A DNA stretch of 64,000 nucleotides from Rhizobium sp. Q54. Lineage in GTDB: Bacteria; Pseudomonadota; Alphaproteobacteria; Rickettsiales; UBA1997. How positions within the stretch are numbered: position 1 is the first letter of the stretch; each line of letters begins with the position of its first letter. The stretch covers positions 1,395 through 65,394 of the forward strand of contig CAMCMF010000001.1 of NCBI GenBank assembly GCA_945875865.1, read 5' to 3'. A program made the translations under genes and the position numbers. Positions 3,993 through 53,744 of this stretch are shown one piece after another. The notes under the pieces are model-generated. The model ran no database searches. It worked only from the letters and a program-made list of their open reading frames with translations, and was not told the origin of the DNA.

Positions 3993-4006
3993 TTAAAATC
4001 ACCAAT

Positions 4007-8825: not shown

Positions 8826-8910
8826 AAACTTTTTTAAAAATTGCTAAAGTGCCACGACACCAATGAACGCTTCGTTTTAAACACTTATCAAGTGGAATGA
8901 TTGAGAATCT

Positions 8911-9123
8911 TTACTTAGTGCAATGTTCCTCAAATTCCTGATTAAAATTGTCGATTTGGCGGAGAGTTTCTTCGGAGATCGTGTTGTATTCTTCTTGACT
9001 CAAAGTGATGGGTTTTGCCCACAAACAGAAGCTATTTGCGGATGTATTTTTGCATCCGGCGCTTAACAGCAGAAATATCGTCACCACGGCGATTTTCTTG
9101 GCGTTTTTTTGATTCAGTTGCAT
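8911..9123 (-). CDS. o-spanin (Rz1-like outer-membrane lipoprotein)
   Basis: From internal Met21 of ORF 8911..9183: MQLNQKNAKKIAVVTIFLLLSAGC has the lipobox LSAGC. It starts inside the i-spanin ORF in another frame and extends beyond it (overlapped architecture). Confidence 0.6.
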   Translation of the reverse strand: MQLNQKNAKKIAVVTIFLLLSAGCKNTSANSFCLWAKPITLSQEEYNTISEETLRQIDNFNQEFEEHCTK

Positions 9124-9247
9124 CTGTAAAATCTTCTTCGAGCTGTTTGGTTTTTTGTGATTTTTTGCCGTAAAAATTTCCAAGAGTAAAAATGGCGATT
9201 ATCGCACCAGCAATTGCTGCGAATCTTGTCAGTAAATTTTGGATCAT
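9032..9247 (-). CDS. i-spanin (Rz-like, N-terminal TMD plus charged periplasmic segment)
   Basis: 71 aa. TMD FAAIAGAIIAIFTLGNF is followed by a highly charged sequence. Sits immediately downstream of holin/endolysin and overlaps the lipoprotein ORF. Confidence 0.55.
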   Translation of the reverse strand: MIQNLLTRFAAIAGAIIAIFTLGNFYGKKSQKTKQLEEDFTDATESKKRQENRRGDDISAVKRRMQKYIRK

Positions 9248-9480
9248 TTTTTGTTTTGCCTTAAAAGTTCGAGTAATCCTGAGCCAATCAAAGCTGCGCC
9301 AACATAAATTAAGCTATCTGCGCATCCATCAAGACGATCAAAAGGTGTTGCTGTGACATGACGCAAGCCGTAAAGAAACAGGATAAACTTCATCAAAGAA
9401 CCGGTGACTAAACAAAAAGCCCCTGCAAGTCTTTTTGACGATTTATTGCCGTTAAAATCTTCTAAAAATTTACAAGCCAT
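9244..9480 (-). CDS. putative holin (two predicted TM segments)
   Basis: 78 aa with hydrophobic stretches LAGAFCLVTGSLMKFILFLYGL and LIYVGAALIGSGLLELL. Sits between the endolysin and the spanins. Confidence 0.5.
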   Translation of the reverse strand: MACKFLEDFNGNKSSKRLAGAFCLVTGSLMKFILFLYGLRHVTATPFDRLDGCADSLIYVGAALIGSGLLELLRQNKK

Positions 9481-9482
9481 GT

Positions 9483-9875
9483 TTAATCAGTTACTAATTC
9501 AAAATGTGGTAAGTCGTAAAAGTTTTGATCTTTCAAATCGTTGTCAGAATCCCAATCTCCACCCCATCTGATTTTAATATTTAGCATCTGTGCAATTCCC
9601 TGAACTCTGCCAGCGAAGTGGTAAAAACGATTTTTATCATTCCAATCAACTGGCCATGGCGCAACATCAACTGCGAGTGATGGTGTTTTGTTGTGCATAC
9701 CGCCTGATTTTATTTTTGATTTGCCGGCGTTGAATGCTTTTAGCTGATCTTCATCTGATCTGTGACCTTCAATGATAGTGCAGTCGTAATGCTTAATCAC
9801 CTCATTGAAGAGTTTCTGTAAATCTGGGTGGCAAGTTGATAATTTCGTTAATGAATCTTTTCCGAATTGCGGCAT
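9483..9875 (-). CDS. endolysin, peptidase M15 (VanY / L-alanyl-D-glutamate peptidase-like)
   Basis: EGHRSDEDQ (H-x6-D) and DLPHFE (His) form the Zn ligand pattern of the M15 family. Also has GGMHNK and AVDVAPW. Located in the lysis cassette. Confidence 0.8.
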   Translation of the reverse strand: MPQFGKDSLTKLSTCHPDLQKLFNEVIKHYDCTIIEGHRSDEDQLKAFNAGKSKIKSGGMHNKTPSLAVDVAPWPVDWNDKNRFYHFAGRVQGIAQMLNIKIRWGGDWDSDNDLKDQNFYDLPHFELVTD

Positions 9876-9882
9876 AAATTTT

Positions 9883-10179
9883 TTATTTGAGTTTTATATG
9901 ATCACCAAGAAGAGAAATAAATCCGGCGGTTAGAATGGTTACGAAGCCGATGACGATGCATTTAACCAGAATTCTGAAGCTGTCCTTCTTCGCCATACGA
10001 AATGCCTTTAGAAGCTCGCGCAAATCACGGATATCAGTTGGTGCGTTTTCATCATGAAGACCCAGTTCTGTTAAAGCCTGTTTAGCTCCTTCTTTTGAAG
10101 CCTGCTCAAGCAGTAATTCCAATTCGCATTTGGTGATGATGAATTCTCCATCGTCAGATTTTTTGATTTTACTCCACAT
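9883..10179 (-). CDS. small membrane-anchored protein (possible holin/antiholin partner)
   Basis: 98 aa with a single C-terminal TMD, CIVIGFVTILTAGFISLL. Located between tail gene D and the endolysin. Confidence 0.35.
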   Translation of the reverse strand: MWSKIKKSDDGEFIITKCELELLLEQASKEGAKQALTELGLHDENAPTDIRDLRELLKAFRMAKKDSFRILVKCIVIGFVTILTAGFISLLGDHIKLK

Positions 10180-11170
10180 TGGATAGTTTGATGATTGCGG
10201 TTACTTGGGTTGTGAATCCTTGGTCAGTAAGCGAGTGGTTAACACTCGTGATGATCCAATTTTTGTTTTTGAGATATTTGATATCGGTGAAAGTGATCTT
10301 GTTTTCAGCGCTGAGTTTTGGATTTCCTGTAGTGGAAAAATTTAAGTTTTCTGCGCCGCGTTTAAATTCAGAGAGTTTTGCTTTTGCTGCGGCAAGCGCT
10401 CTGTCAGAGCTAACAAATTTATATCGCATCGTGTAAGCTGGATCGCCGGTTCCAGCAAAAACATCTTCTTCTTTTCCGGTGGCGAAGTTGTGCCATTTGG
10501 CAATCACTTTGCCAAATTTTTCCATGTCAGAAACGCGAAGTTTCCAATCACTGATTTGTGAAGCAGAAAATTTTGTCGTAGGAAGTTCTTTGCCGTTTTC
10601 TGAAACGCTTACTCCTCTTCTAAAAAAGAGCAGCCTTCCAAGTGACAGCTTTGCAAAAGCACCATAACTTTGCGCCAGAGTGTTAAGAAAAGAGATGTCA
10701 CTTTCGTCAGTTTGATCTAAATGCGAGATGTAGATTTGTTTAAAATAGTCATCTATCGCCGCCTTGAAACCATGGTTGTTGGCAATCGCAGTAATGATTC
10801 CAACCAGCGTGTATCCGTGCCAAGATTTGCTCTTCGGAGCTTTGATTTTTTTGCTTAAATTTTTGTCGAGAGTGTTGCTTGCCTTGCCAGTAATTCGCAT
10901 CTGCAAAGGTGGCGATGAGACTTCGACATCATCAACAATGTAGCTTCCCATCTTTGTTAGAGGCTTGTCTTCATAACCAAGAGAAACTTCCAAGACAGCA
11001 CCGCGTGGCGGTATTTCCAATTTCTCATCGCGGTTGTCTAAAAGGATTTCACAAGTGTCGGAAACCAAACCAGTTTCGTCAGTGATGTTTATCGAAACTA
11101 ATCTTTGCGCGATTAACGCTGTAACATCTTTCTTATCGGCAGTAATTTTGAATGCTGGATTCACGACCAA
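10169..11170 (-). CDS. gpD: phage late control gene D protein (P2 gpD-like tail/baseplate hub)
   Basis: 333 aa. Position after gpU/gpX matches P2 order. N-terminus PAFKITADKKDVTALI..RLVSINITDETG is typical of gpD. Confidence 0.8.
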   Translation of the reverse strand: MVVNPAFKITADKKDVTALIAQRLVSINITDETGLVSDTCEILLDNRDEKLEIPPRGAVLEVSLGYEDKPLTKMGSYIVDDVEVSSPPLQMRITGKASNTLDKNLSKKIKAPKSKSWHGYTLVGIITAIANNHGFKAAIDDYFKQIYISHLDQTDESDISFLNTLAQSYGAFAKLSLGRLLFFRRGVSVSENGKELPTTKFSASQISDWKLRVSDMEKFGKVIAKWHNFATGKEEDVFAGTGDPAYTMRYKFVSSDRALAAAKAKLSEFKRGAENLNFSTTGNPKLSAENKITFTDIKYLKNKNWIITSVNHSLTDQGFTTQVTAIIKLSNVE

Positions 11171-11367
11171 AGTTTAACGCTTTCTGTTTCTTCTTCCTGA
11201 GCCAAATCTGGTAAAACAATTTTTACGCCGGCACTAAATATCGCGCCGAGTTCTGCAAGGTGACGATTGGCTTCTAAAACTTTTTCAACTGTTCCCGAAG
11301 CGCTTCCATAATACTTCCAGCAAATTGCATCAAGCACATCACCATCTTTTGTGACATAAGTAATCAT
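11161..11367 (-). CDS. gpX: phage tail protein X (P2 gpX, LysM-like)
   Basis: 68 aa. GDVLDAICWKYYG....VEKVLEANRHLAELG..F.AGV.I.LPD is the gpX signature. Confidence 0.8.
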   Translation of the reverse strand: MITYVTKDGDVLDAICWKYYGSASGTVEKVLEANRHLAELGAIFSAGVKIVLPDLAQEEETESVKLWS

Positions 11368-11858
11368 ATTGCTTTAACGATGTTTTGAATGATTCCTTTA
11401 ACGCCTGGTTTTGCATCTTCGCCATAACGCTTAAGACTGATTGAAAATTCGATTTTAAGTGGTGCGCCATCTTTCATGAAAACACTTTGGTTTTCTGAAA
11501 TTTTTACGATGCACCATTTACCAAAAGCATTGCCGTTTCCCGAAATCAAATACAGCGGTTTGCCAATTCCGGCTTCAGCGCGCATCAACGTAACCTGACG
11601 CAAACCTCCTTTAAAGTGCGGATAAATCACGCCATCAAGATCAATTGTTTCCACACCAAATCCTGTGAATTGCAAAGCTGGATCAGCACCAATTCTGTTA
11701 ACTTCCTGCCAGCGATATTCGCTTTGTCTTTTTAGACTTTGAAAAGCGGCGGAGCTGATTGCGAAACGATAAGCACCAAGAATCATCATCATGTTGATTC
11801 CAAGCGCGCTGTTTAAATTCAGCTTGCCACCAAGGTTTTTAAAGGAATCGAAAATCAT
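11364..11858 (-). CDS. gpU: phage tail protein U (P2 gpU-like)
   Basis: MMMILGAYRF...YRWQEVNRIG..PALQFTG.G.ETIDLDGVIYP..KGG aligns with P2 gpU from memory. Confidence 0.75.
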   Translation of the reverse strand: MIFDSFKNLGGKLNLNSALGINMMMILGAYRFAISSAAFQSLKRQSEYRWQEVNRIGADPALQFTGFGVETIDLDGVIYPHFKGGLRQVTLMRAEAGIGKPLYLISGNGNAFGKWCIVKISENQSVFMKDGAPLKIEFSISLKRYGEDAKPGVKGIIQNIVKAI

Positions 11859-14179
11859 TGATCGTAGTTCAAAGCGAGTTTTCTTGCGGATAATTTTCTA
11901 AAAGTTTCATCAATGGCGATTCGCACCTGATCAGCAATTTTTTTCTCATCCATATTGCCTCCAGCGTTTATTGTGATCGGCGCAGAAATTGAAATTTGCT
12001 GTGCTGAATTTCCGCTTGTCGGGGCTGTAATATTTGGCATTTCGAAGGATGGAATTTTTCCAATATCGCTTTTGTTTGATTCAAGATTGCTCACAACATT
12101 TCCAACTGTTGAAGAGCTTGAATTTTTTGCATCAGAATTTCCGCTGACAAAATTCCACGCTTTTCCGGCAACATTTGTGATTGAGCCAACAACTGATTTT
12201 AAAGGCTCAACCAGTTTCATCACCCAATCAAAAGCACTTTTCACCCATCCAATAATTCCGCTAAAAATATTCTTAAAAAATTCTCCAACCGGCGTCCAAT
12301 TTGCAATTAGCAAAGTTGCAGCAAGTGCGATTCCTGCAATTATAAGTCCAATTGGATTGCTGATCAAAGCCAAGCCCATTGCACGAATTGCAGTGGTGAT
12401 AACTGGCATTGCCAGACCAACTAAAGTAACAGTTGTTCTGAAAGCCAGCAACACGCCTTGTGCTGTTAAGAAAGCACCTCTTACAAAAGTAAAAGCATAA
12501 CCAAGAGCGATAGTGGCAATTTTCAAGCCAATGATGCTAACAACAGTCAGTCCGATATATTTGGTTAATACCGGGAATTTCTCTGAAAAATTACTGACCT
12601 TCAAAGCCATACCTGCAATTTCTCTGGCAGTTGTTGAAATGGTTGGAAGCAATGTATTTCCAAGTGAAATGCCAATTGATTCAATTGCAGAATCAAGCTC
12701 AAGAAACGAACCGCGAGTGGTATTGCTTAATCTATCCGCCATCGCTTTTGCAGTGCCGTCAGCGTGATTGACTTTGTTTAAAACCTCATCAACCGAACCG
12801 GTTTCAAATCCTTTGAATATTGCTAAAGCGCCGGAGGTTGAATAAGTGCCAAAGATGTCTTTGATGACGCTAAGTTTTTTATCGTCAGAAAGATTCTTTG
12901 TTGCGTTGTGTAGGTCGCGTAAAATATCGACCATTGATCGCATTTTGCCTTTATCAAAAATCTTTACACCAAGACCTTTAAGCCTGTTTTGAGCAAGCAA
13001 TGCTTCTTTGGCAACGTCCGGCATTTCTTCGGCGCTGATCTTCATTTCATCACGCATTTGACCCAAAGCCTTCGAACCAGCTCTTGCCGGAGCAGCAAGG
13101 CGCAAATATGCTGATCTCAACATAGTTCCCGCCATTGTCGCCTGGATACCAGCGTTACTTAAAACACCTGCGAGTGCTGTAGTTTCCTTTAAACTTCCGC
13201 CAACTGCCGCTGCCGCAGGTGCAACGAATTTCATCGTTTCACCAAGCATTTTGACATCGGTGTTGGTGGCAATTGCGGCTTGCGCCAAAACATCCGCCGC
13301 TTCTCCAGCTTGTTCAGCTTTCATGGCAAAGCCGTTTAGGATGTTTGAAACAATCTCTGCGGATTGCCCTAACTCCATATTGTCGGCAATTGCTAGATTC
13401 AGAATCGCCGGAGTCGCTGCCAAAATCTGATTGGTGTTAAAGCCAGCCATGCCCAGAAATTTCATGCCTTGGGCAGCTTGAGCAGAAGTAAATTGAGTGG
13501 TATTTCCTAACTCTCTTGCTTTAGCAGTGAGCTTTTTAAATCCTTCAGAATTTGCCGCTTCCTCAGTTACAGCTCCTACCTGAGCCATTGCATATTCAAA
13601 ATCTACCGCTGGTTTAACTACAGAATAAAGAACTGCTCCAAGTGCAACCGCATCTCCCATCTGCGCGCGATAATTAGCGCGGTTAGAAAGATTTTGTGAT
13701 TTGGCATCGGCATTTGCTTGAAGGGCTGCCTGTCTCTTTTTTAAAGTTTCGAGAGTCTTTCCTAAAACCTGTTGCTGCTGATTGAGATTTTTGAAATCAA
13801 CGCCAGCGGCACTTAAGGCTTTGCCCATTTCGCGAGTAGCTTGCGCTGACTCCATGAAAGCGGTTTTTGCTCTTTGTGCAGCCGTCTCTGCCTTACGAAA
13901 ATTGTTCTGAAGCTCTTTAGAAGGTTTGTCGGTTTTGCTGATTTCCGCGCTTAAAAGATTCAGCTTTTGCTTCGCTTCCTGATATGCTAGAGACGCTTCT
14001 TTTGTGGCGCGCGATGATTTTCTGAAAGCCTCAATTTCTCCCGCTTTATCATTTACCTTTTTGATTGCATCGCCAAGAGCAGAGAGCTGTTTATTCGCTC
14101 CGCTGAAAGAATCTCGGAATGATTTTCCCAAATCAGCACCGATTAAAATCGATACGGCAGCGTGAGTTGAGTTGGTCAT
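11855..14179 (-). CDS. gpT: tail tape measure protein
   Basis: 774 aa, Ala/Gly/Lys-rich coiled N-terminus with central hydrophobic segments. Lies between gpE/E' and gpU. Confidence 0.9.
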   Translation of the reverse strand: MTNSTHAAVSILIGADLGKSFRDSFSGANKQLSALGDAIKKVNDKAGEIEAFRKSSRATKEASLAYQEAKQKLNLLSAEISKTDKPSKELQNNFRKAETAAQRAKTAFMESAQATREMGKALSAAGVDFKNLNQQQQVLGKTLETLKKRQAALQANADAKSQNLSNRANYRAQMGDAVALGAVLYSVVKPAVDFEYAMAQVGAVTEEAANSEGFKKLTAKARELGNTTQFTSAQAAQGMKFLGMAGFNTNQILAATPAILNLAIADNMELGQSAEIVSNILNGFAMKAEQAGEAADVLAQAAIATNTDVKMLGETMKFVAPAAAAVGGSLKETTALAGVLSNAGIQATMAGTMLRSAYLRLAAPARAGSKALGQMRDEMKISAEEMPDVAKEALLAQNRLKGLGVKIFDKGKMRSMVDILRDLHNATKNLSDDKKLSVIKDIFGTYSTSGALAIFKGFETGSVDEVLNKVNHADGTAKAMADRLSNTTRGSFLELDSAIESIGISLGNTLLPTISTTAREIAGMALKVSNFSEKFPVLTKYIGLTVVSIIGLKIATIALGYAFTFVRGAFLTAQGVLLAFRTTVTLVGLAMPVITTAIRAMGLALISNPIGLIIAGIALAATLLIANWTPVGEFFKNIFSGIIGWVKSAFDWVMKLVEPLKSVVGSITNVAGKAWNFVSGNSDAKNSSSSTVGNVVSNLESNKSDIGKIPSFEMPNITAPTSGNSAQQISISAPITINAGGNMDEKKIADQVRIAIDETFRKLSARKLALNYDQ

Positions 14180-14567
14180 GTTTTTATTTCGGAGTATTCT
14201 TTTTGAACATCAATTGCGGCATCGAAAAAAAGAGAAAAATCTTCTTCAGTCATTTCTGAGATTTCAGAAAGTTGCCAGTTGGTTATTTTCGAGAGGATGA
14301 TGATGGCTCTTGTGACATCCCCTCGGAATTGAAAAAACCCAAATAAACTTTTTGCAGATTTGAGTAATCAGCTTCGTCAAGCTCTTCAATTACCTTTGGT
14401 TCTACTTCACAAAGATTGGCAAAAAGTCTGATTTCTTTTTCTTCGTCAGAGGCGGTTTTCATTTTGGCGACCAAAAGACGATCTTTTATTTTTGATCGTC
14501 TCATGGTTAAATTGGTGAAAGTTTCACCAGTTGCTTCAACTGGATATTTAAGTTCAACTGTGTGCAT
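14176..14567 (-). CDS. tail assembly chaperone frameshift product (gpE+E')
   Basis: A -1 shift at T_TTT_TTC (14337..14331) opens a 53-codon frame (QFRGDVTRAIIILSKITNWQLSEISEMTEEDFSLFFDAAIDVQKEYSEIKT). It ends at a TGA overlapping the tape-measure ATG (ACATGACC). Confidence 0.7.
14283..14567 (-). CDS. gpE: tail assembly chaperone (P2 gpE-like)
   Basis: Taken from the internal ATG at 14567 (MHTVELKYPVE...). The longer ORF-track start at 14618 would overlap the divergent DUF167 gene. Contains the slippery heptamer near its 3' end. Confidence 0.75.
   Translation of the reverse strand: MHTVELKYPVEATGETFTNLTMRRSKIKDRLLVAKMKTASDEEKEIRLFANLCEVEPKVIEELDEADYSNLQKVYLGFFNSEGMSQEPSSSSRK
14331..14337 (-). 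promoter_or_regulatory. programmed -1 ribosomal frameshift slippery site T_TTT_TTC
   Basis: The zero frame reads GGT TTT TTC, checked against the gpE stop at 14285..14283. Confidence 0.7.
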
Positions 14568-14579
14568 ATTTTTTGTTAA

Positions 14580-14819
14580 ATGAAGATTTCTATAAAAGTG
14601 ATTCCCAACGCCAAACAAAACGAAATTGCTGAAGGTGGTTTTGATGAATCGGGCGCAAGAATATTAAAGATAAGAGTCAACCAACCACCAGAAGATGGAA
14701 AAGCCAACAAGGCGGCAATTGAGCTGTTAGCAAAATATTTAAAAGTGAAGAAAAGCGCGGTTTCTATAATCTCTGGCGAAACTTCGCGAAATAAAATTAT
14801 AGAAATTAAATTGGATTAA
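14580..14819 (+). CDS. DUF167 (YggU/UPF0235) family protein, antisense insert in tail operon
   Basis: 79 aa. IKVIPNAKQNEI....LKIRVNQPPEDGKANKAAIELLAKYLKVKKSAVSIISGETSRNKIIEI aligns with E. coli YggU (..PKASRD.I...VKVAITAPPVDGQAN..LVKFL...VAKSQVVIEKGELGRHKQI) from memory. Confidence 0.7.
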   Translation: MKISIKVIPNAKQNEIAEGGFDESGARILKIRVNQPPEDGKANKAAIELLAKYLKVKKSAVSIISGETSRNKIIEIKLD

Positions 14820-15316
14820 ATTCCTAGCGCCTTGCGAACATCAACCAACTTGTCCTGACCACCAATTTTTCTAGTCATGTTGTCGATATCGATTTCGATG
14901 AGTTGCTGCCCATCAATTTCAAGTGAGTAATAACGGCAAGCGATGGTGCATTGCAGCGTTCCTTTTTCTCCTGCTGATATTTTCCCCATGTCCATTTCGG
15001 TATACATACCGCGCAGTTTGATTATGATCGGTGAAACTGTGGTGTCGTCTTGCAAAGCACCACGAAGTGTCACCTGAACTGCATTACCACTGACCAGACC
15101 AAATTGCTTTAGAACATCTTTGTCATATTCAAGAAGTGTGAATGAGCCTTCGAGTTTTTCGACACCCATATCAACCATCACTGGAGAGTCCATGCCACCG
15201 GCACGGAACTCTTCAGTTTTGATGTTTAATTTTGGCGGATTTACTTCTTCAACTTTGCCCACATAGCCACGGCCATCAATAAACAAGTTGAAGTTCTTTA
15301 AAATTTTAGGAATCAT
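14816..15316 (-). CDS. gpFII: tail tube protein (P2 FII-like)
   Basis: 166 aa, directly downstream of the sheath gene. N-terminus IPKILKNFNLFIDGRGYVGKV.EV.PPKL is typical of contractile-tail tube proteins. Confidence 0.85.
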   Translation of the reverse strand: MIPKILKNFNLFIDGRGYVGKVEEVNPPKLNIKTEEFRAGGMDSPVMVDMGVEKLEGSFTLLEYDKDVLKQFGLVSGNAVQVTLRGALQDDTTVSPIIIKLRGMYTEMDMGKISAGEKGTLQCTIACRYYSLEIDGQQLIEIDIDNMTRKIGGQDKLVDVRKALGI

Positions 15317-15330
15317 ATTTGCTTGTTGTT

Positions 15331-16557
15331 TTAGTTAGAAAAAAGCTCTTCGAGATATTCATCAGTCATTCTTGAGCGGAATGTGATGTGCTCTGCCGGA
15401 TAAGGTGGAGTAAAGTCAAAATCGAAAGTGATTTTGCCTTGAGCGATTTGATCAGGAGTGTTTAACTCTGGATTGACAAAAGCATTACCATCAATGATTG
15501 CGCCGATGCTTTTCAGATAACGCAGGTAGTTATTAACTCCTTCCAAAACATCTTCGATATAAGTTTTGGTGATGTTACGATCTACCGCCCACAAGTGAGC
15601 TTTTAAAAGTGAATCGTTGATCATATCTGCTGTTCTTCTGCTTTGTAAGAACATCCATTTTGGATCAGCTGAAGCCGTTCTATTTCCCCACAACCTGAAA
15701 CCATCTTGCTGAATGATGGTGGCAATATCGTTTTCGTTTAAGAAGTTGGCGGTGCAGTTGGTATCGCCCAAAGCAAAATCAATCGGCTTAGAAATTCCAA
15801 CTATTCCGTTGATCACCATATTTGATGGTGACCACCAAAAACCCCGCTCATTATCTGACTTAGCAATAAGACCGGCTATTCTTGCAGACGATGGTTTTTC
15901 AGCGATGGTATTATTTGCTGTGTTTAAAATTTTCACCCACGGAAAAGCAGGATAAATTCTTGAGCTTCCCCAATCTTCACGATAATGAACCGCATCGGTT
16001 TTGTTGGTGTTTGGACAGTCAGCGACAATTATCGCCCTTAATCTTTCGGCAACAGTTAGAAGCTCGGCAACAACTGGATTTGCAACTGGTTCTTCGTCTT
16101 CATCAAGAGGTGTTTGGTGAGTAAATCCTGGTGCGATCAAAATTCTTGGAGTGACAGCAACTTCTGACTGTGCAGCAAGAAGTGCTGAAACGCCTTTGTA
16201 TTTGCCAGTAGTTCCATCAACGCCGCCAATAATATCGCTTAGAGTGATTTTGGTTGGATCAAGAACGCCGGAAGTTTTGTGAGCTGAATTATCAGGATCG
16301 GCAACATTGATCACAACAACCATTGCGCCAGTCTGTTTAAAGATCGCATCAAGTGCCGATGGAATGCTGAAATTGGCATCAGAGCCAAAAATCGTAACCG
16401 CTTCTGCTGGCGAACCTAGAATTAAAGTTGGTGTATTTACTGGTCCTTTGGAAGCTGTTCCAACCAGTCCAATTACACTTGATTTAACTGTTTGTATAGG
16501 GCGCGCACCATCATCTATTTCGATGATTTCTACGCCGTGTAGAAATTGCTCGGTCAT
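15331..16557 (-). CDS. gpFI: tail sheath protein (P2 FI-like)
   Basis: 408 aa. N-terminus FLHGVEIIEIDDGARPIQTVKSSVIGLVGTA is typical of sheath proteins. Confidence 0.9.
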   Translation of the reverse strand: MTEQFLHGVEIIEIDDGARPIQTVKSSVIGLVGTASKGPVNTPTLILGSPAEAVTIFGSDANFSIPSALDAIFKQTGAMVVVINVADPDNSAHKTSGVLDPTKITLSDIIGGVDGTTGKYKGVSALLAAQSEVAVTPRILIAPGFTHQTPLDEDEEPVANPVVAELLTVAERLRAIIVADCPNTNKTDAVHYREDWGSSRIYPAFPWVKILNTANNTIAEKPSSARIAGLIAKSDNERGFWWSPSNMVINGIVGISKPIDFALGDTNCTANFLNENDIATIIQQDGFRLWGNRTASADPKWMFLQSRRTADMINDSLLKAHLWAVDRNITKTYIEDVLEGVNNYLRYLKSIGAIIDGNAFVNPELNTPDQIAQGKITFDFDFTPPYPAEHITFRSRMTDEYLEELFSN

Positions 16558-16605
16558 AAGTTTTATTTTTTTGTTATTAGGAAAAAGTTATTCAGAAGGT
16601 CGTAA

Positions 16606-18306
16606 TCATAATTCAGCATCAGCTACCCAATGTAATCTTGCATAAACTCCAGCCGTCATGCCACTGGTAGCATAGACGCGTCCTATTCCTTTCGTGCCTC
16701 CTACCACTGTAGAAACATTCTTGGATGTAGAGCCTGCGATAAATGATCCCGCAGCACCAGTTGATGTGTTGTAAGCTGTGACGCTTGGTGTCGTTCGTTT
16801 GATGGATTTGAAATCAACATTTACACAAAGCAGAGTGGTATCAGCAGAATTAACATTTCCCCACGCCGCCTGATTTTCTTCTACAGTTCCGGTCGGAGTT
16901 TCTATGTTGTAGCTTCTTTCAAAATATCTCTGGCAAAGTTGTAACTCGTGTTGAATTGATCTTTGCTCAAAGGGTGTAGCAACGCTTCCGGACTCCAATT
17001 GAACGCCACAAATTCTAAAATTATTTGCAGCATTGTCGCAGGAATTGACCTGATTTGAAGTAGCTGAAAAATCTCCATTTTGCCAGGCATTTGGTGTGGT
17101 TTGATAATTGGAGCCAGCAGCCAAGCAAAATACCGCATTCAATGCAGTGCCGTTGGTATAGTTCCAAGCTCCAGCGCTAGGTGTGGCAGGAACGATGATC
17201 TTTTTATATTCCCAAGTGTCTGAGGCGTTTATGGTGTATTCAGCAACATAGCCATAATCTCCAGCGCCACTGGTAAAAGAAACGCAGTAGATACCAGTCT
17301 TGGTGGCTTTTACCCAAAATCCGAAAGTGAAAGTTTTTTGTGCAATCGCTAAAAAATTGTAGCCCTCGATTCTTTGAAAAAAGACCACTATATCGGACGA
17401 GCTGATAGAGGCATCAATCGTCTGGCAATCAATTAAAACTGAGTAATTAAATTTTCTTCCAGCTTGCGCGACAGTTGGAACATCCGTTGATCGTGAAATA
17501 TCATGAACGGCAGTGGTGTTTATTTTTCTGTAAACCCATCTGTCCGCGGTATATTGCTGATCAACAACACTTACAAAAGAAGTGCCTCGTTGCCAAATAT
17601 TAAAATCACCGTTGATGAGAATATTTCTGTTGGAAAACAAATCGGCTAATGCCAACTGGCCAGCGCCGGTAAAATAAGGAATTTTATTGATTGCACCAAC
17701 GAGTGCGGCAAAAGCAGCTAAGTTTGCAGCAAATGCTTGAACATCAGCACCAATTTCTAATCCAAGATTATTTCTGGCTTCGGAGGCATCTTCTACATCG
17801 GCAAGATTTTGTGCTTTAGCAAGTTTTTGTGCCAAAGCATCAAAAACATTTTCAGAAAAATTCGGGTCGTAATTCAGATTGTCGGATAACACCAAATTGA
17901 CTTGCGGTGTTCCACTAAATCCAAGAATCATCCGAACATACAATCTTTTTCCCGATCCGCTTGGAAGAGCTGGCTTAAAAGTTACCGGAAATTTTCCGAT
18001 TGCGAACAAATCTCCATCAGAATCAAAAATCCCAACTTCACGAACATAAAACGATCCAACTCCTTCATCAATTATTGCTTCAACAATTACCTGATTTGGA
18101 TTTTCTTCATCTATTTCAACATAAGTAAGAGTGGTTCTGTGAAGCTCATTTTGTAGGGCGGTTGCTGTTGCAAGCGGATTGTAAGAAGTTCCGTTTGAAT
18201 CACCAATTGCAAGATGAGTTAAATCAATTGGCGCACCTCCAAGGCTCGCAGCAGCATTTTTTGCCAAGCCTGTGTTGGTTATTATGCTGTAGTATTCTTG
18301 GGTCAT
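16606..18306 (-). CDS. gpH: tail fibre protein, paralogue 4 (P2 gpH-type N-terminal domain)
   Basis: 566 aa. The N-terminal ~225 aa is near-collinear with ORFs 20832..22535, 22561..24255 and 18815..20263. C-terminal domain is of the NGDFNIWQRG...QLESGSVATPFE...LCQRYFE type. Confidence 0.8.
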   Translation of the reverse strand: MTQEYYSIITNTGLAKNAAASLGGAPIDLTHLAIGDSNGTSYNPLATATALQNELHRTTLTYVEIDEENPNQVIVEAIIDEGVGSFYVREVGIFDSDGDLFAIGKFPVTFKPALPSGSGKRLYVRMILGFSGTPQVNLVLSDNLNYDPNFSENVFDALAQKLAKAQNLADVEDASEARNNLGLEIGADVQAFAANLAAFAALVGAINKIPYFTGAGQLALADLFSNRNILINGDFNIWQRGTSFVSVVDQQYTADRWVYRKINTTAVHDISRSTDVPTVAQAGRKFNYSVLIDCQTIDASISSSDIVVFFQRIEGYNFLAIAQKTFTFGFWVKATKTGIYCVSFTSGAGDYGYVAEYTINASDTWEYKKIIVPATPSAGAWNYTNGTALNAVFCLAAGSNYQTTPNAWQNGDFSATSNQVNSCDNAANNFRICGVQLESGSVATPFEQRSIQHELQLCQRYFERSYNIETPTGTVEENQAAWGNVNSADTTLLCVNVDFKSIKRTTPSVTAYNTSTGAAGSFIAGSTSKNVSTVVGGTKGIGRVYATSGMTAGVYARLHWVADAEL

Positions 18307-35641: not shown

Positions 35642-36582
35642 TGTAAGAATTGGTCGCGTTGTTTACATGATTAATTTGGATTCGCCCTCAATTAACCATG
35701 TAAACTTTGTCTCTCATGAAAATTCACAAAAGAACGCGATTAACTCTAACCGATCGGGAAGAGCTTTGGAAATTGCATTGCACTCGCAAACACAGCCAAT
35801 CTGAGTTGGCAGAGATATTTCGAGTTTCTCGTCAAACAATTTCCAAAATTCTTCAGCGATGTCGAGGGAGAGAATTTGTCCCTCGAAGCAGTATTAACAA
35901 GCGATTTAGAAGTTTACAATATGGTCTCAAACGACTCAAAAAAGTTGAGTTTGAGATTGAAAAAAAGAAAAAGTCAGAGGCGAAGAGATACAATAAATCC
36001 TATCCTGGAGAGCTTGTTCACTTTGATACTAAAAGGCTTCCACTCATCAAGGGAGAAAACAAATTCTCTGCTCGAGAATATCTCTTTGTTGCCATTGATG
36101 ACTTCTCTCGTGAGCTTTACGCCGCAATACTTCCCGACAAAACACAATTCTCTGCTGCTAACTTTCTGAGTCAGGTGATTGATGAATGTCCTTACACCGT
36201 TGAATGTGCTTATTCTGACAATGGCACGGAATACAAAGGAACAAGTAATCACGCCTTCGTTTCTTTTCTACACGATCACAAAATAGGACAAAAATTTACC
36301 AAAGTAAAACGCCCTCAAACCAACGGTAAGGCTGAGAGAGTGATTCGAACATTGATGGAAATGTGGCATCAGAAAACTGAGTTCACTTCACGAGAACACA
36401 GAAATTTGGAGCTCATCAGATTTATCAATTTCTACAATACCGTTAAGCCCCACAAGGGAATTGACGGCAAAACACCTTACGAAAAATTGCTTGAATACTT
36501 TTGATCCAAAAACCAAAAACACCACCACGTAAATTCGCGTGAAAACATTTTGGTTGTGTAAACAACGCGACCAATTCTTACA
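35642..36582 (+). mobile_element. IS481-family insertion sequence (941 bp), intact
   Basis: Perfect 26-bp terminal inverted repeats: TGTAAGAATTGGTCGCGTTGTTTACA (35642..35667) and its reverse complement (36557..36582). Flanked by a 7-bp direct repeat ATTAAAG (35635..35641 and 36583..36589). Carries a single DDE transposase ORF. Confidence 0.85.
35707..36504 (+). CDS. IS481-family DDE transposase (rve integrase core)
   Basis: N-terminal HTH (SQSELAEIFRVSRQTISKIL). DDE residues in HFDTK, YSDNGTEY, TNGKAER. The likely start is ATG 35716. Confidence 0.85.
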   Translation: MSLMKIHKRTRLTLTDREELWKLHCTRKHSQSELAEIFRVSRQTISKILQRCRGREFVPRSSINKRFRSLQYGLKRLKKVEFEIEKKKKSEAKRYNKSYPGELVHFDTKRLPLIKGENKFSAREYLFVAIDDFSRELYAAILPDKTQFSAANFLSQVIDECPYTVECAYSDNGTEYKGTSNHAFVSFLHDHKIGQKFTKVKRPQTNGKAERVIRTLMEMWHQKTEFTSREHRNLELIRFINFYNTVKPHKGIDGKTPYEKLLEYF

Positions 36583-49190: not shown

Positions 49191-49418
49191 TTATTTCTTT
49201 GTTGTTGAAGAAGTTTTGTTGTGAGAAAAACGGCGATTATTTGTCGCTGAGTGCATGTGCTCTTTTTCGAATTTCTTGATGCTTTGAGGCGTGTACCTGA
49301 CAGCGATACCTATTTTGATGAATGGCGGTCCTATTCCTTGGCAGCGCCATTTTTGAAGAGTTCTGAAGTCGATGCCCCATCTTTTGGCGAGGGCTTTTTC
49401 TGAGAGATATTCTACCAT
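49191..49418 (-). CDS. small HTH DNA-binding protein (Cro/excisionase/AlpA-like), first gene of leftward early operon
   Basis: From ATG 49418: MVEYLSEKALAKRWGIDFRTLQKWRCQGIGPPFIKIG..VRY is an MerR/AlpA-type HTH. Confidence 0.6.
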   Translation of the reverse strand: MVEYLSEKALAKRWGIDFRTLQKWRCQGIGPPFIKIGIAVRYTPQSIKKFEKEHMHSATNNRRFSHNKTSSTTKK

Positions 49419-49485
49419 TGGCACTTTGCATTGATTGATAAAATCAAAGCCTCCTAAGCCCAAAATGGACTTGGTGATTTGACTC

Positions 49486-49562
49486 GTGCAAAGTTAGAAA
49501 GTGGGGCGTATGGAAATCGGTATGGCTGCCGTATTAAAATCGGTATTATTTTACCTATACGG
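49486..49562. promoter_or_regulatory. left arm of ~78-bp inverted repeat (phased GTAT-core operator-like array)
   Basis: Reverse-complement match to 51646..51724 with a 29-bp perfect core (49520..49548 = rc of 51660..51688). GTAT cores start at 49508, 49520, 49531 and 49543, with an inverted TATACGG at 49556..49562. Confidence 0.6.
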
Positions 49563-49591: not shown

Positions 49592-50527
49592 TTAATTGAG
49601 GTTCAACCAGTAATATCCTTTGCTGTCGTGCTGCAAAATATTATTGCGGATGTTTTTTGAGTCTGAGCTTCTGAATAATGTTCTTAACTCGGTGCTGCTT
49701 TCTGTGACTTCTACCATTATTTCATCTTTATGTACTGGTTTTCCTGCCTTGTGTAAACATTCAAGCACATCAGCTTCTTGTTTGGTAAATCTGAAATACT
49801 CACCATTAAAACAGGCGCTGCGATAACCAGTGGTAAAACCATCTTTCTTGGTTTTTAGTATTGCTGATTTCAGAGCATTTTTATCGATATAAAAATCACT
49901 CCTATCTGCAGATAAACAATTTCTGAGAGAAATAATTTTATTGCCGGCAATTTTTGAACTAAAGTAACTGGGAATATTGCTGTGACTGGTTAGAATGGCA
50001 CCTTCAAAATCTGATCTACGCTTCTTTAAAGCCTTGTTAATCTTATCAAAGATTTCTTCTTCTTTTATCTTTCTGGCAAAGAAAATCGGAACTTCCACAT
50101 CAAGATTGGCAAACCCAACGCGCCACAACAAATTTGGTAGAATTTCTTCATAATCTTTGTTGATGCCAAGAACATTGCTTATGGATTTTACCATCCAATC
50201 CAGCTTCAGATTATACTTTGTGAAATTTTCAAAAGAGACGGGAACGAATTTATCGTTTTGATCGAAATATCCAGGTTGATTATCTTTGAAGCATAAATCT
50301 TCAGCATCTCCATCTTTGTTAACGCAATAGCTAAGGCTGTCCATTGCGAATGCACCATTGGACACAAGATTGGTCATCTCATCGGCAAAGTGAGTAGCTA
50401 TTCGGTGAGTTACGGATGGGTTATCATTTTCGCATATCTCGCAAGCAAACAGAAAAGATTCTCTGGAAATTTGATTGTTTATTGTAGTCATTTCGGGGAA
50501 CGAAAAGTTATTAACTACTAATAACAA
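49592..50527 (-). CDS. hypothetical protein with C-terminal OmpR/PhoB-type winged-helix-like domain
   Basis: 311 aa. The C-terminus (FTKQEADVLECLHKAGKPVHKDEIM...IRNNILQHDSKGYYWL) resembles Trans_reg_C (LT..E..LL..L....G.V.S...L.......I.T..G.GY.L). The N-terminal ~230 aa is unrecognised. Alternative start at Met13 (50491). Confidence 0.45.
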   Translation of the reverse strand: MLLVVNNFSFPEMTTINNQISRESFLFACEICENDNPSVTHRIATHFADEMTNLVSNGAFAMDSLSYCVNKDGDAEDLCFKDNQPGYFDQNDKFVPVSFENFTKYNLKLDWMVKSISNVLGINKDYEEILPNLLWRVGFANLDVEVPIFFARKIKEEEIFDKINKALKKRRSDFEGAILTSHSNIPSYFSSKIAGNKIISLRNCLSADRSDFYIDKNALKSAILKTKKDGFTTGYRSACFNGEYFRFTKQEADVLECLHKAGKPVHKDEIMVEVTESSTELRTLFRSSDSKNIRNNILQHDSKGYYWLNLN

Positions 50528-50531
50528 CTAT

Positions 50532-50942
50532 TCAAACACCCTGAGCCTCCAGCAGCCCCCAAGATTCCAGATATTTGTTGATAACAGGATTTTTAATCGT
50601 GGTTTTGATCTGACTGAAATATCTTATTTTGACTGGTATTCTGTTTTTCTTTTTATCAAGAAATCCCTCATAAAACAACACGTCGAGACCGATCTCTTTG
50701 ACAGCAAGGCACTTTGTAGAAATGTTTTTTGCCTTGATCGCATCAAATATGGCTTTTTTGTTATCGTTAACGGCAAAAGAAAAATCGTAACTTTCGCAAG
50801 GCGATACCACTGTCACGTCCTTAATTTTGACATCTTTTATTCCGTCTCTTGGATCTGTAGAAAACTTGAAACCATCTATCAACTTTTCAAAATTTTGCGA
50901 AATATTGAAAGATTTTCTAAATAAAACTTCATTTTTATGCAT
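50532..50942 (-). CDS. hypothetical protein (immunity-region cargo)
   Basis: 136-aa ORF, 4 nt upstream of the 311-aa gene. No motif recognised. Confidence 0.4.
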   Translation of the reverse strand: MHKNEVLFRKSFNISQNFEKLIDGFKFSTDPRDGIKDVKIKDVTVVSPCESYDFSFAVNDNKKAIFDAIKAKNISTKCLAVKEIGLDVLFYEGFLDKKKNRIPVKIRYFSQIKTTIKNPVINKYLESWGLLEAQGV

Positions 50943-51004
50943 TGTGATACTATTATTTGTTTAATAATAAGCCCCCAAACTATCTTTTGGGAGAGCATCA
51001 TAGC

Positions 51005-51043
51005 TACTTAACTTGATTTTTACCACACAAATCAAGTTAAGTA
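51005..51043. promoter_or_regulatory. 15-bp perfect inverted repeat in divergent promoter region (candidate operator)
   Basis: TACTTAACTTGATTT (51005..51019) - 9 nt - AAATCAAGTTAAGTA (51029..51043). Lies between divergent genes 50942<- and ->51087. Confidence 0.5.
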
Positions 51044-51086
51044 AAACTTTTATGAAAAATAGTGTATCATTTTAGGACAACTACCG

Positions 51087-51632
51087 ATGAGATCTGATGA
51101 AAAAAGTAACCATGGAGGATATAGAGCTGGAGCAGGAAGAAAGCTGGAAGTAGGTAAGACAAAATCTAGGCGCATCCCAGAAGAAATCACAAGTGATGAT
51201 ATCAGGCTTTTAAGCGCATATAAAAAACACGAACTCCCATTTTACGAGATGAAATCTGAAGGCGGAGTTGCCTCCATCGCAGATAAAGAGCAATACGAAA
51301 GCCGCAAACCAACTGAAAAGCTGCTGATAAACAATATTCAGAATCACTTTTTTGTTAAAATGTCCGGATGCCACTTGAAGGAAGAAGGCATATTGGAAAA
51401 TGATCTTTTACTGGTTAACCAAACAAAAGACCTTCGAGACAACAACATCGTAATTGCAACATCCGACACTGGTAAAGCTGTTATTAAAAAACTAACCAAA
51501 GAAGGTGATAAGATGAAGCTCACTTGCGGCAACGATAATTGTCCTGACATGGAAATTGATGATAGTTCTCTTGATAGAATCTGGGGAGTGGTGACCAGAG
51601 TCATCAGAGATTACAACCCAGTTGCTGCTTAA
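51087..51632 (+). CDS. LexA/CI-like S24 domain protein with non-canonical active site
   Basis: FFVKMSGCHLKEEGILENDLLLVNQ...NNIVIATSDTGKAVIKKL...IWGVVTRVIRD aligns with LexA [25 protein letters not shown]...GQVVVARIDDEVTVKRL...GLAVGVIRN. His96 occupies the Ser119 position. Confidence 0.65.
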   Translation: MRSDEKSNHGGYRAGAGRKLEVGKTKSRRIPEEITSDDIRLLSAYKKHELPFYEMKSEGGVASIADKEQYESRKPTEKLLINNIQNHFFVKMSGCHLKEEGILENDLLLVNQTKDLRDNNIVIATSDTGKAVIKKLTKEGDKMKLTCGNDNCPDMEIDDSSLDRIWGVVTRVIRDYNPVAA

Positions 51633-51645: not shown

Positions 51646-51724
51646 CCGTATAGTCAAATTAATACCGATTTTAATACGGCAGCCATACGGATTTCTATAC
51701 GCCCCCCATTTTAAGTTTGGCTCA
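51646..51724. promoter_or_regulatory. right arm of ~78-bp inverted repeat
   Basis: See the left arm. Followed by an 8-bp inverted repeat, GCTCACAA (51720..51727) / TTGTGAGC (51740..51747), that spans the nominal GTG start of the next ORF. Confidence 0.6.
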
Positions 51725-51753
51725 CAATTTCAACAACCATTGTGAGCAAACAA

Positions 51754-51954
51754 ATGACATCAAAAAAAGAAGAAAACGGATCAGCAAAACAGGCGCAAAA
51801 GCGAATTGCCGAAATTGCTAGGATTTTATGCGCTGGAATCAAGCGCCTCAATGATCGGGAATCATCACAAAATAGTCTCAATCAACTTGACTACAAAACC
51901 AGCGGAAGCCTTCATAGCATTGATTCTAACCCCAATCAACAATTCATGCTATGA
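51754..51954 (+). CDS. small hypothetical protein
   Basis: ATG at 51754 within ORF 51742..51954 (MTSKKEENGSAKQAQKRIAEIARIL...). Its stop overlaps the start of the DUF2924 gene. Confidence 0.4.
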   Translation: MTSKKEENGSAKQAQKRIAEIARILCAGIKRLNDRESSQNSLNQLDYKTSGSLHSIDSNPNQQFML

Positions 51955-52373
51955 GCAAAAGTATTATTCGTCAGGTAATTGATTTAGATGGAAAAACGCC
52001 AGCCGATTTACGGCAGATTTATAATGAAATTATGCCGAAAAAATGTGCCGCTAATTCTGGTAAAGAATTTTTACGACCAAGGATTGCTTACCGCCTTCAA
52101 GAGTTAGTATTTGGTGGCTTAGCCGATGAAACCAAAAACAAGCTGTTAAAAATTGCAGACGGCATTTCAACCAATTCATTAAGACATCACAGCGACCTAA
52201 TGCCAGGCACAAAGATTTGCCGTGAGTGGAATGAAAAAACTTATCAAGTCGAAGTCCTCAAAGATGGTTTTGAATATGAAGGGCAGAAGTTCAAAAGCCT
52301 TTCCTCGATTGCTAGAAAAATTACCGGCACCAGATGGAACGGTCCGAAATTCTTTAAATTAAGAGCTGATTAA
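51951..52373 (+). CDS. DUF2924 domain protein (serine-recombinase-associated)
   Basis: GTKICREWNEKTYQVEVLKDGFEYEGQKFKSLSSIARKITGTRWNGPKFFKLR is the DUF2924 C-terminal signature, from memory. Confidence 0.7.
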   Translation: MSKSIIRQVIDLDGKTPADLRQIYNEIMPKKCAANSGKEFLRPRIAYRLQELVFGGLADETKNKLLKIADGISTNSLRHHSDLMPGTKICREWNEKTYQVEVLKDGFEYEGQKFKSLSSIARKITGTRWNGPKFFKLRAD

Positions 52374-52376
52374 AAT

Positions 52377-53744
52377 ATGAGAAACTTCCAACAAAATTCT
52401 AAAAATGATCAGTTAAAAAGTGACGGCGACTTAAATCAAAAACCGAAAGTTCGTTGCGCAATTTATACTAGAAAATCCAGCGAAGACGGATTGGAACAAG
52501 CCTTTAACTCTCTTGATGCCCAAAGGTCTGCCGCAGAAAATTATATTGCCTCACAGATTCATGAAGGATGGGTTTTAATTTCAACTGAATATAATGATGG
52601 CGGCTATTCCGGTGGTAGCATGGAAAGACCGGCTTTTAAGAAACTGCTTCAGGACATCAGGGAAGATAAAATTGACTGCGTAGTGGTTTACAAAGCAGAT
52701 CGCTTAAGCAGAAGGCTTTTTGATTTTACTCAGATTGTTGAGATTTTTGATCAACATAAAGTCAGCTTCATTTCGGTTACAGAGAGTTTTAACACCTCTA
52801 CTGCCGCGGGTAGATTGATGTTTGGAATGATTATGAGCTTCGCTCAGTATGAGCGCGAATTAACCTCAGAGCGCATCAGAGACAAGGTTGCCGCTTCAAA
52901 GAAAAAAGGGATGTGGATGGGTGGATCAGTTCCGCTGGGTTATGATGCTAAAGATGCGAAGCTTCTTCTTAACGAGGAAGAGGCAAAAATTATCAGAAAC
53001 ATTTTCAACATTTTTATTGAAAGCGAATCAATAACAGAAACTGCTAGAGAGCTAAATAAACACGGATTCATCACTAAAAGCTGGGTATCAAAAACAGGCA
53101 GAATTCAAAAAGGGAAAAAGTTCAACAAACAAAATGTCAGAAGGTTTTTAGAAAATAAAATTTATGCGGGAATGATTGAGCATAAAAACCAGTCATATGA
53201 AGGTTTGCACGAGGCAATAATTACTAAAGAAATTTGGGAAAAAGCTGATTCAATTCTTAACCGCAACCAACAAAATCAAATCATAATTCCGAAGTCGCGA
53301 ATAACCTCAGCACCACTTCTCAAAGGCATAATACACTGCGGAGTATGTGGTGCCAAAATGGTTCCAACTTACACCAAAAAACAAGGCAAGAGATATCGCT
53401 ATTACCTTTGCTCATCTAAAGCAGTGGGCAATAATGATTCTTGCAAGATAGCCAGAGTTTCGGCAAACGAGGCGGAAAATGTAATTACGAATCAGGTTTT
53501 AACTCTTTTAAGAAAACCGGAATTTATCGTTAACACCATAGGTCAAGCGGTAGGCAAAATCTCTGAAAATCTGATTATCAATTCTTTCAAGCAAATTGAA
53601 AAAGTCTGGGATGAGCTATTTCCACTTGAACAGGCCAGAATTATCAATTTGTTAGTAAAAGACATAGAGGTCAGACCAGATGGCTTAAATATCCGAATTT
53701 TTAAAGACGGACTTCACTCATTATCAAACGAACTCACAAATTGA
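52377..53744 (+). CDS. large serine recombinase (phage integrase type)
   Basis: Catalytic N-terminus VRCAIYTRKSSEDGLEQAFNSLDAQR. Resolvase core YKADRLSRR. Recombinase domain plus a zinc ribbon (CGVCGAKM...YRYYLC). 455 aa. Confidence 0.9.
   Translation: MRNFQQNSKNDQLKSDGDLNQKPKVRCAIYTRKSSEDGLEQAFNSLDAQRSAAENYIASQIHEGWVLISTEYNDGGYSGGSMERPAFKKLLQDIREDKIDCVVVYKADRLSRRLFDFTQIVEIFDQHKVSFISVTESFNTSTAAGRLMFGMIMSFAQYERELTSERIRDKVAASKKKGMWMGGSVPLGYDAKDAKLLLNEEEAKIIRNIFNIFIESESITETARELNKHGFITKSWVSKTGRIQKGKKFNKQNVRRFLENKIYAGMIEHKNQSYEGLHEAIITKEIWEKADSILNRNQQNQIIIPKSRITSAPLLKGIIHCGVCGAKMVPTYTKKQGKRYRYYLCSSKAVGNNDSCKIARVSANEAENVITNQVLTLLRKPEFIVNTIGQAVGKISENLIINSFKQIEKVWDELFPLEQARIINLLVKDIEVRPDGLNIRIFKDGLHSLSNELTN

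Follow-up and report, generated by a model that had tools for sequence, protein, structure and literature searches.

A candidate two-protein early master regulator in a family of temperate phages, pairing a predicted winged-helix protein with outward-facing four-box arrays

Two adjacent genes, here called A and B, lie in a prophage of about 45 kb that occupies roughly 9–54 kb of the window, by which we mean the whole 64,000-nucleotide stretch of Rhizobium sp. Q54 that was analysed (GenBank assembly GCA_945875865.1, contig CAMCMF010000001.1, positions 1,395 to 65,394). Our leading account, to which we give about an even chance of being right, is that the two proteins together act as the early master regulator of this family of temperate phages, in an activator cascade under repressor or SOS control. 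The account is built from gene order and its conservation, from the winged-helix fold matched by the C-terminus of B, from arrays of four boxes that co-vary with B, from fusions of A with B, and from the interchangeable repressors that stand upstream of the pair.

Gene A (136 amino acids; 50532–50942, minus strand) is taken from the list of open reading frames (ORFs) and is the presumed partner of B. The listed ORF of gene B spans 49592–50527 on the same strand and encodes 311 amino acids from a TTG start; all homologues of B have their N-terminus at MTT..., and L001, a relative, has a stop codon in the TTG frame only three codons in. The true start is therefore the ATG at 50491, which gives a protein of 299 amino acids (49592–50491) with an unassigned N-terminal region of about 215 residues ahead of the winged helix. 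An earlier note on this DNA, written from the letters and an ORF list, had described tightly coupled ORFs of 136 and 311 amino acids diverging from an S24-like gene, and both the ORF list and a match to PF00717 bear this out; the 4-nt gap that it gave between them holds only with the TTG start and becomes a spacer of 40 nt with the ATG. A and B are real genes under strong purifying selection: measured against six relatives, the ratio of nonsynonymous to synonymous substitution rates (dN/dS) is 0.05–0.10 overall (A, 0.05–0.10; B, 0.07–0.10), similar to that of the neighbouring AAA_24 gene.

Both genes are on the minus strand, divergent from the plus-strand gene in the repressor slot, which encodes an S24/LexA-like protein of 181 amino acids (51087–51632; Pfam PF00717 Peptidase_S24, E 7e-16), and the pair comes first in the leftward early operon. 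A-B thus occupies a cro-like position. The earlier note had instead likened this position to that of rexAB in lambdoid phages. As in lambda, a two-gene unit does lie between two operator-like repeat sets of an immunity region; rexAB, however, lie downstream of cI on the same strand, whereas A-B is on the strand opposite to the repressor-like gene and so is not co-transcribed with it. A-B also differs from rexAB in being invariant among relatives and in showing no similarity to defence proteins.

That invariance was assessed in 13 loci from close relatives, found in GTDB genomes (freshwater Rickettsiales-like and other alphaproteobacterial metagenome-assembled genomes, MAGs) and in IMG/VR. The pair is in the same place in 13 of 13, and the order, as far as the contigs reach, is S24 (opposite strand) / A, B, HTH_17, p163, AAA_24, p190, helicase. 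Close homologues are few, with word-indexed protein searches returning only about 30 per protein, all at least 50% identical (for A, at least 57%) and mainly from metagenome contigs, plus one Rickettsiales MAG. When more distant loci were collected through the highly conserved AAA_24 gene, diverged B proteins (21–39% identity) were found to fill the same slot in many phages, preceded by a longer form of A that we call A-long. There, A-long and B lead an operon of HTH_17 → AAA_24 → helicase → DUF6511 → primase, in Bartonella sp. DGB2, the Acanthamoeba endosymbiont UWC8, Magnetococcus, IMG/VR phage contigs and several metagenomic contigs. A tblastn search of B and A-long against 50,697 GenBank phage records gave no match. 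With a slot that does not vary among relatives, the pair lacks the patchiness expected of a moron, and the uncharacterised cargo of the earlier note becomes part of the syntenic core of the phage family, with nothing optional about it.

Cargo does enter these loci, at two other places. The first slot follows S24: in L005 a 7.6-kb stretch of cargo separates the S24 stop codon from the right arm of the inverted repeat described below, and its contents (1258–8880, on the S24 strand) include PhzF-like and creatinase-like proteins, several GNAT acetyltransferases, an APH-like kinase and a 781-amino-acid protein. It is here that the family seems to have its true moron slot, the one expressed in the lysogen. 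The second, seen in more distant relatives, is the gap between B and HTH_17, an insertion hotspot that holds AbiEii/AbiEi in L044 (4211–5813), a PemK toxin-antitoxin pair in L095 (9110–9705), a zf_CopZ protein in L096 (9155–9700), HNH and methyltransferase genes in L100 (5354–6942) and YjaZ in L098 (7044–7643), with the inserts of L044, L095 and L096 on the opposite strand.

These slots bear on the proposal, also made in the earlier note, that A-B is a prophage-encoded defence or superinfection-exclusion system. Its location in a prophage with an unassigned function would suit such a role, as would the AbiE, PemK and HNH/methylase cargo drawn to neighbouring slots, and a homologous pair on a plasmid adjoins a ubiquitin-like (Multi_ubiq-ThiF) operon. 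Nevertheless we rate the proposal as unsupported and very improbable: A, B, three A-long proteins and one distant B-like protein have no match in PADLOC (PADLOC-DB 2.0) at E ≤ 1; the presence and position of the pair are invariant, unlike those of morons, which have their slots elsewhere; no enzymatic or membrane effector domain was detected; and against it stand also the predicted DNA-binding winged helix with its co-varying boxes and the SOS or repressor control upstream.

The case for a regulator begins with the C-terminus of B. An exhaustive profile search gathers 229 cluster representatives of the B family at E ≤ 1e-3, mainly of 300–320 amino acids. Scans of Pfam (E ≤ 1), PHROGs, PADLOC and NCBIfam place B in no family, a Pfam scan of 55 family members found no domain match, and distant B proteins gave nothing useful in Pfam or PADLOC. 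The AlphaFold2 (AF2) model of B, with a mean predicted local distance difference test (pLDDT) of 73, has helices at residues 237–249, 255–262 and 276–284 and a hairpin at 286–296, in a winged-helix region (residues ~225–299; 49595–49819, minus) of moderate confidence (pLDDT 55–81). In a Foldseek search of the PDB the top 35 matches are all OmpR-family regulators, and the isolated DNA-binding domains of CovR, ArlR, AdeR and PmrA align to residues ~225–299 with a probability of 0.96–1.0, a template-modelling (TM) score, TMt, of 0.55–0.64 and a root-mean-square deviation (rmsd) of 3.2–4.5 Å; across the OmpR-family DNA-binding domains the TM range is 0.5–0.64. The B family profile also has weak matches to the DNA-binding domains of VanR and DrrD (E 0.035–0.12), while sequence matches to Trans_reg_C (PF00486) are absent at the gathering score and even at E ≤ 1. 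The prediction that the C-terminus of B is an OmpR/PhoB-type winged-helix DNA-binding domain is supported by these comparisons, and the earlier note's attribution of the last ~70 residues to this type holds, for the last ~75, with Foldseek probabilities of up to 1.0 and the weak profile matches.

PhoB, whose complex with the pho box (PDB 1GXP) is among the Foldseek matches, resembles B in this C-terminal fold. The rest of the protein differs: B has no Response_reg match and no phospho-acceptor signature, its N-terminal 215 residues are of unassigned fold, and full-length response regulators align to it only at an rmsd of 15–18 Å. None of the window ORFs next to B encodes a histidine kinase; in place of one, B has a co-encoded, sometimes fused partner. 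We therefore rejected B as a two-component response regulator, for want of a receiver domain.

That partner has no family in Pfam, PHROGs, PADLOC or NCBIfam scans in its 136-residue form (A136), so that the earlier note's failure to recognise a family for it, or for the N-terminus of B, stands confirmed. The label 'TatD' given by the Joint Genome Institute (JGI) to two A homologues was disregarded, no scan of A136 having returned a TatD family. Profile-profile comparison (hhalign) does relate A136 to A-long, the ~390–425-residue protein that takes its place before diverged B proteins, with a probability of 98% and E 2e-13 over 117 columns, at A-long columns 276–401, which is the C-terminus. 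A-long belongs to phrog_37634, a phage family with no assigned function, in the PHROGs scan; the short A of L019 (135 residues) matches positions 268–407 of that family at E 6e-10, and the window's A136 by itself has no match to the PHROG model. By profile alignment, then, A136 is a stand-alone copy of the A-long C-terminal domain: it is homologous to the C-terminal ~130 residues of phrog_37634 and lacks the N-terminal ~260, and membership of this family explains nothing mechanistic. The A family has 70 or more cluster representatives. Nothing was found for A-long in Pfam or PADLOC, its sequence search against the PDB yielded only a spurious match to interleukin-2, and the AF2 model of A136 (pLDDT 72) has no PDB fold match. 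The remote homology and structure prediction that the earlier note had proposed were thus productive for the C-terminus of B, with its OmpR-type winged helix, and gave no fold for A or for the B N-terminus.

A-long and B are mostly translationally coupled or overlapping, and in L073 (2337–4592) and L078 they are fused as one ORF of ~750 residues, which is classic evidence that A and B act jointly. In L073 an extracytoplasmic function (ECF) sigma-like gene lies downstream, at 5018–5740.

The candidate targets of B lie on both sides of the locus. As the earlier note had observed, the block is bracketed by an inverted repeat; it is 74 nt long, its arms are 88% complementary, and it encloses exactly the S24, A and B genes. 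The left arm (49489–49562, minus), a putative B-dependent promoter, faces the HTH_17 early operon, whose first gene downstream of the arm encodes a MerR/excisionase-like protein (49191–49418, minus; Pfam HTH_17, E 3.5e-5), with its likely start at ATG 49418 judging from relatives. The right arm (51646–51719, plus) faces the operon of p70, DUF2924 and a large serine recombinase, the integrase (51742–53744, plus; Pfam DUF2924 at E 2e-40, and Resolvase, Recombinase and Zn_ribbon_recom). Each arm contains four ATAC(C/G)G boxes spaced 12/11/12 bp, then CCCC, then a -10-like hexamer (TAACTT on the left, TAAGTT on the right); both read outward, and the boxes sit where a -35 would be expected. Domains of the PhoB/OmpR type are known to bind across the -35 region to direct repeats with a period of one helical turn. 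The candidate repeats here, which have a period of about 11 bp and precede a -10-like hexamer, resemble PhoB-dependent promoters in this respect. The 16-mer ATACSGATTTYNATAC occurs twice in the left arm (49508–49523 and 49531–49546) and twice in the right (51662–51677 and 51685–51700), and these four are its only perfect matches in the 64-kb window; at up to two mismatches there are six against 0.4 expected, and both matches outside the arms have two mismatches. An invertible segment flipped at the 74-nt repeat by the serine recombinase was considered and rejected, the orientation being the same in all relatives and the arms promoter-like.

Both arms are present in most close relatives and co-vary within each locus. 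What follows this right arm in L002 and L004 is an AlpA-like excisionase gene in place of the p70-DUF2924-integrase operon, and the arm is therefore tied to the excision module, whatever the type of recombination. A strict automated search for arrays (a 5-mer repeated four times in steps of 10–13 bp, with at most one mismatch) was positive ahead of the AAA_24 operon in 31 of the 94 loci scanned, against only nine clusters in 228 kb of downstream coding sequence. Where cargo has been inserted after B, the array remains immediately upstream of HTH_17.

The box itself differs between lineages. It is ATACCG in the window and L019; CACAC in L064, the Candidatus Tenderia electrophaga plasmid (L093), Bartonella (L094) and UWC8 (L095); CCCAC in L044 and L098; CCTCCC in L096, L100 and L014; and GGTCTAAC in L073 and L078. 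Box type tracks the clade of the B C-terminal domain and not that of A or HTH_17. One comparison is between L075 and L044, whose A-long proteins are 83% identical, whereas the B proteins align only over the N-terminal part, at 31% identity, and have winged helices unrelated to each other; their boxes are CCTAAC and CCCAC respectively. The two loci amount to a natural swap that separates B from its neighbours. Conversely, L098 and L044, with B proteins 72% identical, have the same boxes. Together with the Tenderia plasmid, which lacks HTH_17, the swap indicates that the boxes travel with B and not with A or HTH_17.

Phased repeats next to a winged-helix gene also invite the reading that B is an iteron-binding replication initiator, the repeats being origin iterons, A a loader or partner, and the inverted arrays comparable to ori/crr of P4. 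Initiators of ~300 residues with winged helices that bind phased direct repeats are well known (RepE, pi, RepA); the pair leads the replication module in every lineage, and the repeats adjoin the gene as in plasmid rep-iteron units, including on a plasmid. We assign this reading a low probability. In the window clade the second array is always just upstream of the excision/integration operon, with any recombinase type, faces outward and shares a -10-like sequence with the first array, all of which is promoter-like, and when cargo is inserted the arrays move with the start of the downstream operon. Moreover, the arrays have no evident AT-rich unwinding element beside them, neither Pfam nor NCBIfam gives a Rep family match, the fold matches are to OmpR-type transcription factors, and the phage encodes a Toprim + AAA_25 primase-helicase whose ~200 residues of extra C-terminal sequence could bind the origin.

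A and the divergent S24-like gene are separated by a control region of 144 bp (50943–51086). Within it is a perfect inverted repeat of 15 bp (51005–51019 and 51029–51043, 9-nt spacer, 100% complementary), whose core CTTGATT-N-AATCAAG is kept in ten relatives and to which the S24-like protein may bind as its operator. Another palindrome that is conserved, TTGATTTTATCAATCAA (49424–49449, minus), lies within CTTTG...CAAAG just upstream of the HTH_17 start and has TTGAT/ATCAA half-sites in common with the first; it could be an additional operator for this protein. LexA-type self-cleaving repressors combine a Ser-Lys dyad with an N-terminal helix-turn-helix (HTH), and the S24-like protein has neither in full: alignment places His at the position of Ser119 of E. 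coli LexA (motif FFVKMSGCHLKEEGI) with the Lys kept, and a Pfam scan found no HTH family in the N-terminus, which has a basic GGYRAGAGRK motif and a strand-like segment, 'RRIPEE'. In nine close relatives of the window clade with a readable motif the Ser position is H, E or N, and the more distant L019 and L042 keep Ser. By appearance the protein of the window looks like a pseudo-peptidase repressor.

The same slot is filled differently elsewhere: by S24-like proteins in the window, L019 and L042; by an XRE repressor with an M78/ImmA-type protease in L044 and L098; by a WYL regulator in L096; and by no repressor gene in L100, which has a LexA box alone. The L100 box, CTGTATATATATACAG (3073–3088), is a perfect consensus, the only one in the contig. 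It follows closely on a TTGACA, in the divergent region of 213 bp that separates the p62-DUF2924-integrase operon from A-long. Boxes of the alpha type, GAAC-N7-GAAC, occur within 300 nt upstream of A in four loci from two independent lineages, against 0.27 expected. In L073 such a box stands about 24–38 nt upstream of the start of the fused ORF, and L082 has the same box type upstream of A-long. The A-B unit is set off from the box promoter by terminator-like hairpins in L100 (found by scan) and in L064 and L094 (seen by eye). The interchangeable repressors, the LexA boxes and the hairpins lead to the view that A-B is a separate unit, off until induction. The earlier note had placed the pair in a lysogeny-expressed position; in relatives, the A-B promoter adjoins interchangeable damage-responsive repressors, with the perfect LexA box of L100 among the evidence, which points the other way. 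Its alternative suggestion, that the pair is the real lysogeny regulator, survives in part: B has a winged helix and putative boxes on both flanks, and the evidence points to a switch-on regulator that is held off in the lysogen.

The sign of regulation is also what separates our leading account from the possibility that maintenance or immunity depends on B, with A, as the true repressor, which would be made in the lysogen and bound to boxes over the -35 of both outward promoters, silencing replication and excision, with the catalytically dead, HTH-less S24-like protein as an accessory sensor. The lack of a recognised HTH and of the Ser nucleophile in that protein would fit, and the boxes overlap the place of the -35 on both flanks, like the left and right operators (OL/OR) around the lambda immunity region. 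L014, whose flanks are 88–95% identical to the window and whose B is only 23% identical, shows a mosaic typical of immunity swaps, and the terminators after B in relatives would equally suit a constitutively expressed repressor gene. We consider this possibility unlikely, while leaving some weight on it. A LexA-repressed gene cannot be a maintenance repressor, and the perfect LexA box at the A-B promoter of L100 implies that the pair should be silent in the lysogen; other lineages have alpha-type boxes ahead of A; in L044 and L098 the divergent slot is already filled by an XRE + ImmA-type repressor/antirepressor pair that is complete; having no -35, the box promoters would need no repressor; and on the Tenderia plasmid the module precedes a non-phage operon. 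What probability remains after the three alternatives discussed here and our leading account falls to unforeseen functions.

Under the activator account, events might run as follows. In the lysogen the A-B promoter in the divergent region would be held off by the S24-like protein, probably through the 15-bp palindrome. Once this block is lifted, A and B would be made together, and B would bind the four ATAC(C/G)G boxes of each arm through its winged helix as head-to-tail oligomers. Facing outward, with boxes at the -35 place and a -10-like hexamer beyond, the arms would let B serve as a PhoB-like class II activator of two operons: leftward, HTH_17, Sak4-like AAA_24, helicase and primase, for replication and recombination; rightward, p70, DUF2924 and the serine integrase, for excision and integration. 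A136, a minimal form of a larger partner that keeps only its C-terminal domain, would probably bind to B and modulate it.

Several points weigh against this account. Some concern the proteins: the model of B is only moderately confident, with four of five models near pLDDT 52, and its N-terminal 215 residues and the whole of A have no fold assignment, while the S24-like protein of the window clade, with neither a catalytic Ser nor a recognised DNA-binding domain, is a putative repressor. Others concern the promoters. A simple consensus promoter scan found nothing convincing in the arms and was uninformative for the divergent region too, and the sign of regulation depends on a weak promoter reading, that of -10-like hexamers with no -35; the LexA boxes that would support this sign are in other lineages and not in the window. 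The window has no terminator after B, and read-through from the A-B promoter could express the early operon with no activation at all. Finally, since boxes and B are adjacent, their co-variation could partly reflect linkage; the binding of B, the activator sign and the role of A are inferred.

A circuit of the same type is known. In the SXT/R391 integrative and conjugative elements (ICEs), the LexA/CI-like (S24) repressor SetR holds off a divergent operon for a two-subunit activator, SetCD, which turns on excision/integration and propagation genes from several dedicated promoters. SetR → SetCD is the nearest functional analogue of the proposed cascade, with no sequence relation: SetCD belongs to the FlhDC family, whereas A and B have no FlhC/FlhD or other Pfam match and B has an OmpR-type winged helix; the element here is a tailed prophage and not an ICE; and, compared with SetR, the window's S24-like protein lacks the HTH and the catalytic Ser. 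A looser parallel is lambda CII, likewise a protein made early by a phage. CII binds direct repeats on either side of a -35 and activates several promoters, that of the integrase included, but it has no sequence or fold relation to A or B, acts alone as a tetramer, and directs the establishment of lysogeny, whereas the targets of A-B include the replication operon. The circuit type is known and the proteins are new: a non-phosphorylated OmpR-type winged helix with an unassigned N-terminal domain, and a partner of unassigned fold. The literature and sequence collections searched contained no description of the A-B module or of the four-box promoter cassette.

The module also occurs outside phages. 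A plasmid search gave one informative match, the Candidatus Tenderia electrophaga plasmid (CP013100.1; 8001–12682, genes all annotated hypothetical), where A-long, B and CACAC boxes stand directly upstream of an operon of Multi_ubiq (PF14452), a 177-residue protein and ThiF/E1. This suggests that the cassette has been co-opted there to regulate a ubiquitin-like conjugation or defence system. A broader claim can be built on it: that A/B is a portable master switch cassette of a kind not described before, made of two proteins that are fused in some cases, in which a non-phosphorylated OmpR-type winged-helix activator, a partner of novel fold and their own four-box promoter launch the lytic programme downstream of interchangeable damage sensors, in a large group of alphaproteobacterial temperate phages that includes prophages of Bartonella and Rickettsiales-like endosymbionts, with at least one plasmid using the cassette for a ubiquitin-like conjugation or defence operon. 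We advance this tentatively, thinking it somewhat more apt to be wrong than right. In Bartonella sp. DGB2 (L094, CP177325.1; ~2700–6700 and 8001–16783), the A-long/B-led early operon adjoins an apparent rRNA operon (only junk ORFs), with no repressor or integrase called upstream of it, and may be a prophage remnant or a domesticated replication module.

Two features complete the map of the window's prophage. At its right end lie DUF2924, the large serine recombinase and a 146-residue ORF. An rve-type transposase of an insertion sequence (IS) element (35707–36504, plus) is an opposite-strand insertion inside the prophage, with the terminase region on one side and a ParB-N6 methylase gene on the other, in a region of low GC content (36%).

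All of the implications that follow are computational, and no single result would overturn current understanding. For the reading of prophage maps, the slots for lysogeny-expressed cargo in this family are those downstream of S24 and between B and HTH_17, and not the A/B position. Should the proposed model be true, two orphan families of proteins, one with about 230 cluster representatives and the other with 70 or more, would gain a function. The model would also make available orthogonal activator/box pairs covering at least five box specificities, with partners identifiable from the sequence. If the portable-switch claim held as well, a second signal would enter through the large N-terminal domain of A-long, which the window clade has lost. 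Most broadly, the model would define the output stage of the lysis-lysogeny decision for a widespread, uncharacterised group of temperate phages, whose hosts include freshwater Rickettsiales-like bacteria, Bartonella, Magnetococcus and amoeba endosymbionts.

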